A stretch of 29,148 bases of DNA. Origin: Candidatus Woesearchaeota archaeon (lineage in GTDB: Archaea > Nanobdellota > Nanobdellia > SCGC-AAA011-G17 > GW2011-AR17). Shown here piece by piece: positions 1-17,374 of the stretch (position 1 is the stretch's first letter; each line of letters begins with the position of its first letter). The translations under genes and the position numbers were made by a program. The notes under the pieces are model-generated. The model saw nothing but the letters and a program-made list of their open reading frames with translations, searched no databases and was not told where the DNA came from. Location of the stretch: the NCBI GenBank assembly GCA_016211095.1, contig JACQSW010000090.1:1-29148 (forward strand), read 5' to 3'.

Positions 1-34
1 CTTATTAAGCATATACTTCTTATAGTTTTTAAAG

Positions 35-155
35 AGTGTTAGTGTGGGGCGACTTAGCGACTAATGCCTTCGGGCGTTATAGCAAATTTTCGGATTTGCT
101 CATTCAAACTTGGTCTTCGTATCGATTTTGAACTAAGCCTAGGCGCGCTAACACT
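35..155 (+). ncRNA. Unassigned structured RNA-like element (four-way junction, three UUCG-capped hairpins, long closing stem)
   Basis: Manual folding gives a closing stem 35-46/144-155 (12 bp, 2 G-U) and an inner stem 53-57/133-137. Hairpins are 62-79 (7 bp, cUUCGg), 81-100 (8 bp, UUCG) and 103-132 (11 bp with mismatches, UUCG in loop). Many G-U pairs fix the + orientation. Function and expression are unknown. Confidence 0.6.
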
Positions 156-177
156 TCAAAATTCTTGTAACAAAAAA

Positions 178-185
178 TTATTAAA
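178..185 (+). promoter_or_regulatory. Archaeal TATA box (TTATTAAA) with A-rich BRE; leaderless promoter of the P-type ATPase
   Basis: Lies 25 nt before ATG 211. The same spacing recurs at several other genes in the window. Confidence 0.55.
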
Positions 186-210
186 CCTGAAAAGGCAAAT
201 AACATAAACT

Positions 211-2805
211 ATGCGCGCTTTTAATGTTGGTGAAGTTCTAAAAGGATTAGAAACAGATAGTGGTGGGTTAAGCAGCGAAGAGGCAAAAGGTCGGCTAACG
301 AAATATGGTTTTAACGAGTTGCGTGGCGAAAAAAGGGTTTCTCCTCTAAAAATTTTTTTAAGCCAATTCAAAGACCCCCTTATTGTTATTCTTTTTGTAG
401 CAACGCTTGTGTCTGTTTATATAAATGAAGTTGCAGATGCTTTTATCATTGCTGCGATTATTGTTCTTAATGCTGTGGTCGGCTTTTTTCAAGAATTCAA
501 GGCAGAAAGGGCTTTTGAGTTGTTGAAAAAAATGAGTGTGCCGCACTGCATTGTCTTTAGGGATAGAAAAGAAGAGGTTATAGAATCAAGATTTTTAGTG
601 TCAGGCGATATAATCATTTTAGGGGCTGGTAATAAGGCGCCAGCTGATGCCCTGCTAATCGAATCGATGAGTTTAGAGGTTGACGAATCTGCTTTAACAG
701 GCGAATCTATCCCTGTCCAAAAGAGTATAGCCGAGGTAGACGAAGGTACCGCCTTGAGCGAAAGAAGCAACATGATTTTTTCTGGAACAACAATCACGCG
801 TGGCACGGGAAAAGCCGTTGTTGTTTCTACTGGTATGAATACTGAGTTTGGAAAAATAGCCAAGCTTGTGCAAACAATTGAAACAGCAACCACCCCTCTC
901 CAGAAAAAACTTCAAGGATTAGGCAAATGGCTAGGGGCAGTGATCCTGTTTATTTGTTTAATAATATTCGGCCTTGGTATCTTAACCGGTAAGTTTAATT
1001 TTTTTGAGCTATTCATGACTGTCTTAAGTTTAGCTGTTGCTGCTATACCTGAAGGATTGCCAGCAGTAGTGACTATTTGCTTGGCTTTAGGCTTGCGGAG
1101 GATGCTTAACCGTAAAGCTCTTATTCGAAGGCTAAAGGCTGTAGAAACTCTTGGAAGCATTACGGTCATCTGTACCGACAAGACTGGTACTCTGACAAAG
1201 AACGAAATGACTGCTATCCAATTATTTGTAAACAACCAGTACATAGATGTTAGCGGTTCAGGCTATGAAACTAGCGGCGAATTCAAAATCAACAACAAAG
1301 CAATCGATCCGAAACGAGTGAAGTTATTGCTGGAAATTGCAGCTTCTTGCAATGACTCAACATTAGAAATTGGTGACCCCACAGAGAGAGCGCTTGTTGT
1401 ATTGGCAAAGAAGGGGTTTGTTGAGAAGGATGAGGCAAGGATTGGTGGGATCCCCTTTGATTCAGACAAAAAGTATATGGCTACATTTCATAAGAATGGC
1501 TTGGCTTATTTTAAGGGTGCTCCAGAAAAAATCCTTGAAATGTGTGGTTACATACAAATAAACAGTTCTAAACGGCGAATAACTTCAAAAGAAAAAAGTG
1601 CAATCCTAAACGAGAGTGGGGAAATGGCTGCTTCTGCATTAAGGGTATTGGCTTGTGCGTATAGCCATGACAAGAAACTGCGAGACCTGACTTTTGTTGG
1701 TTTGGTTGGAATGATTGATCCACCAAGAGATGAAGCCCAAGAATCAATTGCGTTGTGTGAAAAAGCAGGAATAAGGGCAGTAATGATCACAGGGGATCAT
1801 TTGGTGACAGCGAAAGCGATAGCCAACAGAATTGGCTTAAAAGGCGATGCTATCAATGGAGACGAAATTGATAAGCTAAGCATGCCAGAGATGCAGGAAT
1901 TGGTAAAAAAAGTAACAATATTCGCGAGGGCGTCTTCAACGCATAAAGTCAGAATTCTTTCTGCCTTGCAAAAAAATGAAGAGATTGTGGCGATGACTGG
2001 GGATGGTATTAATGATGCGCCTGCACTAAAAAAAGCAAACGTCGGTGTGGCAATGAACATAAAAGGCACAGATGTTAGCCGGGAAGCTGCAGACATGACT
2101 CTTTTGGATGATAATTTTGCGACGATTGTTTCTGCAATAAGGGAGGGTCGCACAATTTATGACAATATCAAAAAGTTTGTCAAGTTCCTCTTAGCAGCTA
2201 ACCTTGGAGAAGTTTTACTTATCCTTATAGCGATAATTGTTAGCCTCCCTCTTCCGCTTCTGCCAATTCATATTCTTTGGATAAACCTTGTTACTGATAG
2301 TTTGCCTGCGCTTGCTTTAAGTGTGGAGAAGTCGGACCCAAAAATTATGGAGAGAAAGCCTCGGCCGGTTAATGAGAGCATATTCCATAATATAAAATTC
2401 TTTTTGATAGTTGCAGGCTTGTTAACAGCAATGAGCAGCTTAGCAGCGTTCTTGGTTTATTATTGGGATGGCGGGGATATTGTTAAAGCTCGGACGATTG
2501 CGCTCACAACAATAGTTGTATTTGAGTTGCTTCTTGTTTTTGCTTGCAGATCAAAAAAATTAACTTTGGTAGAGTTAGGCTTGTTTTCTAATAGGTATTT
2601 AGTTGGAGCAGTCGCTGTCTCATTCATTGCGCACCTCTTAATAATTTATACTCCGCTAAGCGCATTTTTCAAATTGGCCAGTCTAGGGTTGAATGATTGG
2701 CTGATAGTCTTAGCTTTCGGCGCTAGCGGCTTGTTATTTTTTGAAATAAAAAAGTTTTTCTTTCCAAACAAAGAATTAATTGTGCAGCCTTATGCACGTT
2801 TATAA
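211..2805 (+). CDS. P-type ATPase, P2A (Ca2+-transporting, SERCA/PacL-like), 864 aa
   Basis: Motifs [13 protein letters not shown] (M4), DKTGTLT (phospho-Asp), [29 protein letters not shown] and [14 protein letters not shown] (M6); about 10 hydrophobic segments. Confidence 0.96.
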
Positions 2806-4227
2806 AAAATTCTCCGGGTTTATCTTGCTTGTGATAAGCATTCTTTTAATGTTGTAGTCTATTAATAATTCCGTCTTTTTGTCATTATTCTTTTGCAACT
2901 CCCTCTCTAAATCTATTAAAGCTGAGAAGTCCAATTTTTTGTTAGTGTAAGCTTTTATCGTTGATATTCTGGTATTTTCTAAGTTGCTTATGTTCTCGTT
3001 TGTTGCTTTTATCCTGTTTTCTGCTTCCCTTAAGGCGCTGTATAAGTTTGTTATTTCAAGCTTTATGTTATTCTCTTCTTTTTGCATTTCCAAGGAGATG
3101 ATTATTTGGTCTGATTCTGATTTGGATTGCCTTGCTTCTGTATTTTTATCAAAAAATGGGAGGGGTATGTCTATACCTAATCCGAATTTGTACTCCTCTG
3201 TTTCTGGGTTGAATTTTCCTTCTAGGCCTATTTTTGCGTCACGAGTTGGACCTTTTTTGGCGGCTTTTGCTTCTTTTTGTATTGCTTGTTGGAATGCCCT
3301 TAATTTTTTTAGTTCGAGGCTGTTTTGTATTGAATTTTTGATGCAGTATTCTAAGTCTTGATTGAAAGGCAAATATTCTGGTGATGCAGTTATGCTAATT
3401 TCGGTGGTTAGTGCTAATCCTAAAAGGCTTTTGAGATTGTTAAGGATTCTTTCATAGTTGTTTTGCCTATTGTTAAGTGCGTCCTGCGCTGAGGATAGCT
3501 CTGTCGCTGCCCTCATCAAATCTGCCTCGAAGTTTGTTGTTTTTTTAATGATAGAATCATCTTCTTTTATGTTTAAGACGTAACTCTTTTGGTTGCCAAC
3601 GAAGGCGGTTATTTTTAGGACTTCGTAATAGTTTTGGGTTACAAATAGTTTAACGTCCCTAACGGCCTGTTCGTAGGTTATTTCTGCCGCTTCAAGCGTT
3701 GCATCTGCTATTGCCTGCTTTGCCTTTTCGTTAGCAGGAGTGGTGGATAGGTATGGGGTGGGGAAGCTAAATTTTAAGATTAGTTCGGGTTCAAATGTGC
3801 GAAATTGATTGTTTTCTGTAGAAGGTTTTTCTATTAATTCTTCTTTTCTTGTTTCCCGGATTATCCATTCGAGTTCCACTGCGTTTTTGAATTTTTGTTT
3901 TAGGTAGAGGTCTATGTTTGATTCTATTTTTGATTCTTCTTTGTCGTTATCGCCAGTTAAATCTTCTTTTCCTGTGTGGAGGTAGTTTGTTTTAAACCTT
4001 AACCCTACTTGTGGGGCATAATTTGCGTCGAACAAGTTTTTTTCTGCCTTAGCAAGGTTTAGCCTTTCGTTGGCTTGCTGTAATAACAAACTTTCGTGGA
4101 GAGCTAAGTCTAAGGTTGTTGTTTGATCTAATTTTAATGGTTGTGAGCCATTTGAGTAGGTTAATGTGGGGATTAGCAGAGAAGTTGTTGTTATAATTGC
4201 TGCAATTTTTTTAATTCGTTCCTTCAT
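2800..4227 (-). CDS. TolC/OEP-family outer-membrane efflux channel-like protein, 475 aa
   Basis: N-terminal signal-like peptide and two OEP-like repeats: LDLALHES...AKAEKNLFDANYAPQVGL; VKLFVTQNYYEVL; DLMRA...LKSLLGL; CIKNSIQNSLEL; GLGIDIPLPFFD; KAYTNKKLDFSALIDLEREL...DY. Confidence 0.8.
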   Translation of the reverse strand: MKERIKKIAAIITTTSLLIPTLTYSNGSQPLKLDQTTTLDLALHESLLLQQANERLNLAKAEKNLFDANYAPQVGLRFKTNYLHTGKEDLTGDNDKEESKIESNIDLYLKQKFKNAVELEWIIRETRKEELIEKPSTENNQFRTFEPELILKFSFPTPYLSTTPANEKAKQAIADATLEAAEITYEQAVRDVKLFVTQNYYEVLKITAFVGNQKSYVLNIKEDDSIIKKTTNFEADLMRAATELSSAQDALNNRQNNYERILNNLKSLLGLALTTEISITASPEYLPFNQDLEYCIKNSIQNSLELKKLRAFQQAIQKEAKAAKKGPTRDAKIGLEGKFNPETEEYKFGLGIDIPLPFFDKNTEARQSKSESDQIIISLEMQKEENNIKLEITNLYSALREAENRIKATNENISNLENTRISTIKAYTNKKLDFSALIDLERELQKNNDKKTELLIDYNIKRMLITSKINPENFL

Positions 4228-17251: not shown

Positions 17252-17374
17252 AGGACCGGACGGGATTTGAACCCGCGACCACCTGATATCTTCTTTTTTT
17301 GAAGTTAAAAGTTTCACCTTAACAACTTTTTTTTCGTTGTTAACAGGTGCTCTACCAGGCTGAGCTACCGGTCC
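17252..17374 (-). tRNA. tRNA-Lys(TTT) with two introns: 31 nt at 30/31 (17313-17343) and 18 nt at 37/38 (17288-17305)
   Basis: Exons join to GGACCGG TA GCTC AGCCTGGTA GAGC A CCTGA CTTTTAA TCAGG TGGTC GCGGG TTCAAAT CCCGT CCGGTCC, a complete cloverleaf. Both introns show a BHB-type central helix (CACC/GGTG; CTTT/GAAG). No encoded CCA. Confidence 0.88.

Follow-up and report, generated by a model that had tools for sequence, protein, structure and literature searches.

What is encoded at nucleotides 35-155 of contig JACQSW010000090.1, from a Candidatus Woesearchaeota archaeon? This contig, all 29,148 nt of which we refer to as the window, is contig C64 of a 0.93-Mb metagenome-assembled genome (MAG; hereafter G000) that comprises 152 contigs and is 85% complete. 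Its gene content is archaeal (split RpoA, S12, S7 and NusA-KH). The original prediction had described 35-155 as an RNA with a four-way junction and three UUCG-capped arms. We find that the base of its stem is modeled, in the minimum free energy (MFE) structure and in the ensemble alike, as a canonical archaeal bulge-helix-bulge motif (BHB; hBHBh' with its flanking helices) of exact 3-4-3 geometry. We put a probability of about 0.6 on a reading in which 35-155 is a free-standing small RNA gene whose transcript would be cut by the endonuclease EndA and ligated by RtcB. Below, element B denotes 35-155 together with its homologues, which come from two related genomes of the same order: G004, with one copy on contig C19 (G004a) and another on contig C11 (G004b), and G052, which belongs to a different family.

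Using RNAfold on the plus strand of 35-155, we obtained an MFE of -41.6 kcal/mol, a stability that none of 200 dinucleotide shuffles reached (z = -3.94), in agreement with the earlier expectation of a fold better than shuffled sequence. As the minus strand folds worse (-29.3, z = -2.18) and the plus strand uses seven G-U pairs, where six or more had been claimed, the structure is one of plus-strand RNA. The 12-bp closing stem (35-46/144-155) and the three hairpins with TTCG in their loops (62-79, 81-100 and 103-132) all fold where they had been drawn. The 5-bp inner stem proposed at 53-57/133-137 stood only in part: it exists as a competing alternative, while the MFE structure pairs 47-50 with 137-140 and 54-57 with 133-136, leaving 3-nt bulges. 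These bulges are unpaired with probabilities of 0.64-1.0 (about 0.9 for the 3' bulge, 141-143), and the pairs of the central helix H have probabilities of 0.58-0.67 in G000 and 0.76-0.96 in the homologues. Three UUCG hairpins within 70 nt do not reflect a habit of the genome, because both strands of G000 hold 27 such hairpins with stems of at least 6 bp versus about 21 in shuffled sequence. The supposition that the element belongs to no known RNA family also held: for 35-155, Rfam 15 returned no match at the gathering score and, at E <= 10, only a meaningless fragment of a long non-coding RNA, and ARAGORN found no tRNA there.

An archaeal BHB consists of two 3-nt bulges with a 4-bp helix between them, and is recognised by EndA (PMC5829648). 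The MFE structure of the element has two 3-nt bulges on opposite strands, as do those of G004a and G052, with exactly 4 bp between them, and these are flanked by an outer helix h of 12 bp and an inner helix h' of 4 bp in the handedness of a tRNA intron. For introns at tRNA position 37/38, this means a 3' bulge directly next to the exon helix and a 5' bulge four bases further in. At the level of sequence, the element has every tested feature of a BHB substrate. Both enzymes are encoded in G000, and also in G004. The EndA of G000 (C49) is a 201-aa protein with N and C domains (PF02778 + PF01974). RtcB in G000 matches in two pieces, positions 186-426 at C36:7660-8385 (-), within a 645-aa open frame, and positions 1-48 at C81:9242-9391 (+); it could be intein-containing, split, or interrupted by an assembly break.

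A scan for strict BHBs in G000 with outer stems of at least 6 bp is noisy (2210 matches versus about 1440 in shuffles). With an outer helix of at least 7 bp there are 509 candidates, and in 3 of these the motif is kept in the candidate's own MFE structure; the window element is the sole strong folder among the 3. The other two strict 3-4-3 BHBs kept in the MFE, at G000:C35:3692-3768 (+) and G000:C47:5720-5915 (+), have outer helices of at least 8 bp, fold weakly and are without UUCG hairpins. Another sequence, C130:3027-3086, shares GGGC-GAC...GCCU-UAG with the element (hyphens here and below separate helix and bulge segments). We regard it as a chance match: its outer stem includes four G-U pairs, the surrounding DNA looks coding, and the motif is lost in its MFE structure.

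The handedness and the cut sites of the element can be checked within the same contig, since a rule that cuts after the second base of each bulge, in the same arrangement as in the element, turns the contig's tRNA-Lys gene into a valid tRNA. This tRNA-Lys(UUU) gene (window 17252-17374, minus strand) carries, in its anticodon arm, 49 additional bases that make up two BHB introns, one of 31 nt at 30/31 and one of 18 nt at 37/38, with a middle exon of 7 nt. Once spliced by the rule, it yields a 74-nt tRNA-Lys(UUU) that ARAGORN accepts; ARAGORN misses the unspliced gene. Applied to the element, the rule predicts cuts between 52 and 53 and between 142 and 143, which would give a 90-nt RNA (53-142) and a 31-nt hairpin with a 7-nt loop.

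A covariance model built from the single sequence retrieved G004:C19:19934-20072 (E = 7e-9), a two-sequence model retrieved the second G004 copy, on C11 (E = 4e-11), and a three-sequence model with explicit structure retrieved G052:C11:2811-2903 (E = 1e-5). The G004 C19 locus also occurs as a strain variant on a metagenome contig, L074, whose sole difference from G004a within the element turns a U.G pair into U-A. The copies share the core rGGY-RAC-UUAG...CURA-GCCY-AGR, which is near-invariant; the stems differ, and in the outer helix it is the pairing that is kept and not the sequence. The inner helix of G052 is UUAGC/GCUGA. The original prediction had named compensatory changes in homologues as a check, and such changes are found. 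In an alignment of G000, G004a and L074 with explicit structure (A5), 98.8% of cells are paired, versus 27-48% with slid partners, and the tool's count, which is conservative, has six pairs changed on both sides, versus 0-1 in slid controls; these values were attained in none of 500 shuffles. A base-anchored count by hand also takes in pairs lost to gap columns in A5 (three in hairpin 2 and one in the outer stem) and gives 9 double and 9 single pair-preserving changes between G000 and G004a, and the only non-pairs are the two C-U mismatches in hairpin 3 of G000. For the outer helix relative to G004, the tool counts two double and two single changes, and the hand count has three double changes, the third in an A5 gap column. 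Hairpin 3 is homologous in sequence to hairpin 3 of G004 (UUCxxAxUUGxUC), with AA/UU replaced by GG/CC.

If the four-way junction with three arms were the defining feature of the element, as had been supposed, then it should recur in the homologues. G004a does fold with a 10-bp outer helix, the BHB and three UUCG hairpins of 13-14 bp, leaving no junction base unpaired (-79.4 kcal/mol, z = -10.7). The cargo of UUCG-capped hairpins, three in G000 and G004, is reduced to two in G052 (z = -4.7). Moreover, 2 nt upstream of each B copy in G004 lies an adjoining element, which we call element A, that encloses one 21-bp UUCG hairpin (z = -9.8). The base of element A is BHB-like with a different core (GAAG / CUUC, bulges AC(U) and GGA), and its two copies in G004 differ at three positions, all of them pair-preserving transitions. 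Because the hairpin count varies across elements, neither the four-way junction nor a hairpin number of three is essential; it is the BHB base, of which the original prediction made no mention, that is conserved instead. As far as comparison of these sequences can tell, the essential parts are the BHB and a UUCG-capped, fully paired cargo. Conservation is highest on the intron side, namely at GCCY, the inner helix, the UUCG caps and the bulge residues C (5' bulge) and AG (3' bulge), and the exon side (R-A, R and the outer helix) varies more. Since the intron-side residues and the caps are the most conserved, this pattern suggests that the excised hairpin bundle is the likelier selected product.

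If 35-155 is a gene in its own right, then it should have its own promoter. The contig starts 1 nt upstream of the TATA box that had been proposed at 2-9, and this box, TTATTAAG, aligns with the B recognition element (BRE) and TATA box, AGAAARATTTATAWAT, of the G004a, G004b and G052 loci, which stand 27-32 nt before the outer helix. Logan contigs reach 178-276 nt beyond the window contig. The DNA stems from groundwater metagenomes; all sequencing runs found are of groundwater DNA, with no RNA run among them, and they contain no variants. A second BRE/TATA lies between the element and the next open reading frame (ORF) at all four loci, 22-33 nt before the ATG. The TATA box that had been assigned to the downstream ATPase gene at 178-185 aligns with this second promoter, which bears out the proposed independence of the element from the ATPase mRNA. 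At the G052 locus, a run of seven T directly follows the 3' strand of the outer helix.

These arrangements bear on an alternative in which the element is a BHB intron in the 5' untranslated region (UTR) of the downstream gene, such that splicing of a long leader tunes expression of the ATPase. There is precedent for this in the leader intron of HVO_1309 in Haloferax volcanii (PMC7714728), all four copies point toward a same-strand ORF that begins 47-78 nt downstream, and G000 and G004a are without a strong terminator. Yet each downstream gene has its own BRE/TATA, the G052 stem is followed by its T run, the downstream genes are unrelated (a P-type ATPase in G000, MetK for G004a, Pop5/Rpp14 for G004b and a 474-aa protein in G052), and the ATPase orthologue in G004 has no such element upstream. 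The separate promoters and the unrelated genes weaken the case for a 5' UTR intron, and we consider it distinctly unlikely. A riboswitch-like leader is disfavored because of the same promoters, the unrelated genes and the bare G004 orthologue; no constant downstream gene family, of the kind expected for a cis-regulatory leader, accompanies the element.

Two of the neighborhoods deserve mention in their own right. G004b lies 47 nt upstream of the gene for the RNase P protein Pop5/Rpp14 (L082 1062-1454 (-)), which is followed by proteasome subunit alpha (370-1074 (-)). This adjacency looks incidental; a normal RNase P RNA is present elsewhere in all three genomes. About 300 nt upstream of the G052 element is a gene for an AbiEii-type nucleotidyltransferase toxin of a type IV toxin-antitoxin family (L088 280-1203 (+)).

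We searched for further copies in several collections. Overall, the element is present in 3 of the 240 genomes of the order, in two families, with one copy in G000 and two in G004. BLAST of the element against 60 relatives gave chance matches only, and BLAST of the G004 module against the 240 genomes found G004 alone. Degenerate-core patterns matched only G000 and G052 across the same 240 genomes and nothing among the viral contigs of IMG/VR. The exact-core pattern had no match in 400 genomes of the phylum, one (G004) in a collection of species-representative genomes, and two in the metagenome collection of the Joint Genome Institute, namely a G004 strain and a chance match in coding DNA. Covariance model R3 found nothing further in 150 genomes of the class. 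The family is thus real, but rare and patchy. A dispersed repeat, of the repetitive extragenic palindromic (REP) kind raised by the original prediction or resembling a miniature inverted-repeat transposable element, is not supported: there is one copy in G000 and two in G004, none in the viral contigs, and UUCG hairpins are not enriched in G000.

Patchiness of this kind is also what a low-copy selfish or mobile intron-like element might show, in this case a family of BHB introns that left tRNA genes and now persist, or occasionally move, as a minimal 'intron in a mini-helix' without benefit to the cell. The tRNA genes of Woesearchaeota are rich in BHB introns, the tRNA-Lys of this contig having two, and the two G004 copies occupy unrelated contexts, with one of them decaying. 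On the other hand, a passenger would not be expected to keep its BRE/TATA conserved between families or to have a terminator, as in G052. We find no similarity between the element and any other G000 sequence, tRNA introns included, no transposase, integrase or homing endonuclease adjoining any copy, and no target-site duplications, and the viral contigs searched are free of it. We therefore regard a selfish element as unlikely, though less so than the leader intron.

The conservation of the core raises the question of whether the base is cut at all. In principle, the bulged base could be a protein-binding site of a structured non-coding RNA that EndA never cuts, with the 3-4-3 geometry coincidental. 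In favor of this, the core is conserved in sequence, beyond its shape, and EndA is not known to need sequence. However, the exact BHB geometry and handedness recur in every B copy, and element A forms a BHB-like base from a different sequence. A sequence test for kink-turn, C/D and H/ACA features was negative: after the bulges come UU and CG instead of GA, tandem G.A pairs are lacking, and neither a RUGAUGA nor a CUGA box occurs. The probability that we give to an uncut protein-binding RNA is correspondingly small.

Could the element instead be a housekeeping RNA, such as a disrupted or permuted tRNA, a 5S rRNA, an RNase P RNA or a signal recognition particle (SRP) RNA, that the tools missed? 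The four-way junction and the 121-nt size are suggestive, the G000 assembly yielded no 5S, other rRNA or SRP RNA, and tRNA genes of Woesearchaeota are often missed by tools. Against this stands the variable number of hairpins (three or two, and one in element A). A permuted or multi-intron tRNA is rejected, as every loop has 4 nt where a tRNA would have a 7-nt anticodon loop and a T-loop, and neither RF00005 nor ARAGORN gives a match at 35-155. A tRNA would also need about 70 nt or more of exon, and the perfect UUCG hairpins of G004a leave only about 42 nt; the predicted circle has a junction loop, GCCUAGC, without U33. A 5S rRNA is rejected as well: Rfam yields no match, an ordinary 5S of 117 nt occurs in 50 of 61 relatives, and G000 is simply without assembled rRNAs. 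All three genomes (G000, G004 and G052) have a standard archaeal RNase P RNA, and SRP RNA is present in G004 and G052. Of all the alternatives, a missed housekeeping RNA is the one to which we attach next to no weight.

Several observations weigh against a free-standing gene processed by EndA. In G000, a C53-G137 pair competes with helix H. The conserved core sequence exceeds the known generic recognition need of EndA, and another factor may read it. The element is carried by only three lineages, two of which belong to one family, which leaves few independent comparisons behind the covariation. G004b is decaying, its loops having changed from UUCG to UUUG or UUUA and its outer helix being reduced to about 5 bp, which fits a redundant paralogue or a dispensable element. 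As G000 and G004a have no strong T-run terminator, read-through into the next gene is possible. Finally, a scripted scan of the flanks of the G004 rRNA genes found no strict 3-4-3 BHB, so these flanks give no comparator for the EndA preference of this lineage beyond tRNA introns.

Collectively, our data show a BRE/TATA about 30 nt upstream of the element and an RNA fold whose ends pair into the 12-bp helix, the BHB and the inner helix that closes three UUCG-capped hairpins, and they are consistent with a model in which this RNA would be transcribed from that promoter. EndA would then cut after the second base of each bulge (52/53 and 142/143), and RtcB would join the ends to produce a 90-nt RNA, probably circular, and a 31-nt ligated hairpin. 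In the circle, a short arm with GCCUAG^C as its cap would stand beside the three UUCG hairpins. Archaea generally process double-stranded sites by EndA and not by RNase III, and the excised hairpin RNA should therefore be long-lived. It might serve an RNA-binding factor or the splicing machinery as a stable scaffold, decoy or sponge, or it might have no role. We rank a stable scaffold or decoy for such a factor or for the splicing machinery first among the functional options, a selfish low-copy intron-like element second and a leader intron third. In other archaea, the same ligation yields circular introns and circular pre-rRNAs (PMC12558985, PMC7714728, PMC12918454). A more far-reaching proposal, which we offer tentatively and with some doubt, is that Woesearchaeota have dedicated 'circular RNA genes', promoter-equipped units that would serve only to feed a canonical BHB to EndA and RtcB, with a product that is covalently closed, nearly all double-stranded and built of UUCG-capped hairpins, and in which the GCCYAG^C loop would serve as the functional face.

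Table 1. Features of the element and its promoters in window coordinates, and the core segments of the four copies.
Feature	Position	Strand	Detail
TATA box of the element's promoter	2-9	+	TTATTAAG; contig begins inside the BRE/TATA, BRE cut off; 33 nt before the outer stem
Outer ('exon') helix h	35-46/144-155	+	12 bp, 2 G-U; 13 bp counting G34-U156; RNAfold
Central 4-bp helix H	47-50/137-140	+	GGGC / GCCU; 3 Watson-Crick pairs and 1 G-U; RNAfold, ensemble
5' 3-nt bulge	51-53	+	GAC; RAC in all copies; predicted EndA cut 52/53
Inner helix h'	54-57/133-136	+	UUAG / CUAA; 4 bp; RNAfold; invariant in G000 and G004a
Hairpin 1	62-79	+	7 bp, cUUCGg loop; 2 double compensatory changes versus G004
Hairpin 2	81-100	+	8 bp, UUCG loop; one-sided changes keep pairing
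Hairpin 3	103-132	+	6 + 5 bp, two C-U mismatches, UUCG in loop
3' 3-nt bulge	141-143	+	AGG; AGR in all copies; abuts outer helix; predicted EndA cut 142/143
Predicted excised RNA	53-142	+	90 nt, three UUCG hairpins; junction loop GCCUAG^C; from BHB geometry and cut rule
ATPase promoter, outside the element	173-188	+	BRE/TATA AAAAAATTATTAAACC (TTATTAAA at 178-185); P-type ATPase ATG at 211
Core, G000			GGGC-GAC-UUAG...CUAA-GCCU-AGG
Core, G004a			GGGC-AAC-UUAG...CUAA-GCCU-AGG
Core, G004b			GGGU-GAC-UUG...CAA-GCCC-AGA
Core, G052			AGGC-AAC-UUAG...CUGA-GCCU-AGA

Some observations on stable RNAs in these genomes stand apart from the element. In G004, the 16S and 23S genes (C10) are flanked by long perfect helices of 12 bp and 18 bp, at L085 1440-1500 / 2978-3020 and at L085 3200-3226 / L086 4463-4490, and the 23S helix abuts both mature ends; it may be linked to the circular 23S rRNA reported in some archaea (PMC12918454). 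The 16S-23S spacer on the same contig holds a tRNA-Ala(UGC) (L085 about 3030-3165), in which there appears to be an insert of about 31 nt after GGGTTCAAA in the T-arm (AATAAGTTTAGCGTTGCTAAACTTATTGAAC); this insert is probably a non-canonical T-loop intron. In the G000 assembly, we found no 5S, 16S, 23S or SRP RNA and no metK, and the RNase P RNA lies at C112:7676-7997 (-). Elsewhere in the window, a 475-aa ORF at 2800-4227 (-) matches the Pfam family of outer-membrane efflux proteins, OEP (E = 7e-21), which makes it a TolC-like ORF within an archaeal contig.

If the model is true, then the element would represent a fourth kind of EndA substrate, beside tRNA, rRNA and mRNA introns, and archaea would make a stable, probably circular RNA on purpose and not as a by-product of splicing. 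Introns are unusually frequent in the tRNA genes of DPANN archaea, and the EndA of these archaea has been little studied; the element offers a small natural substrate for tests of that enzyme, and may bear on the origin and spread of BHB introns. As the family is missing from Rfam, similar elements will stay unannotated in DPANN genomes.

How does the element compare with known systems? EndA substrates described to date are pre-tRNA, pre-rRNA and two mRNA cases (PMC7714728). Pre-tRNA introns of the hBHBh' type (37/38; EndA, RtcB) have the same geometry and handedness, and the same rule splices the tRNA-Lys of this contig. Unlike those introns, the element is not surrounded by a tRNA; its 'exons' amount to a 12-bp helix, it has its own promoter, and its 'intron' is 90 nt made of three UUCG hairpins. 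The processing stems of pre-16S and pre-23S rRNA resemble the element in that their BHB lies in a long leader-trailer helix, from which the RNA inside is freed and made circular (PMC7714728, PMC12558985, PMC12918454); what the element encloses, however, is 90 nt of hairpins and no rRNA. The mRNA introns, in cbf5 of Crenarchaeota and in the 5' UTR of HVO_1309 in Haloferax volcanii, likewise extend BHB substrates beyond tRNA and rRNA, and a circular form of the excised intron has been recovered (PMC7714728). Those introns lie within a defined mRNA, whereas the genes downstream of the element vary and have their own promoters.

Circularly permuted tRNA genes come close in outline, as they too have a leader-trailer BHB around a four-way junction with three hairpins and pass through a circular intermediate (PMC3978253, PMC3218864), but the hairpins of the element are not D, acceptor or T arms: they have 4-nt UUCG loops and stems of up to 14 bp, and their number varies. 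Engineered BHB scaffolds for circular RNA (such as HARBOR, bioRxiv 10.64898/2026.10.12.758436) work on the same principle, in which a BHB stem brackets a cargo and endonuclease and ligase release a stable circle. These scaffolds are artificial, and the element would be their natural, promoter-equipped counterpart. Relative to the described classes of EndA substrate, then, what would be new in the modeled element is a free-standing gene with essentially no exon.

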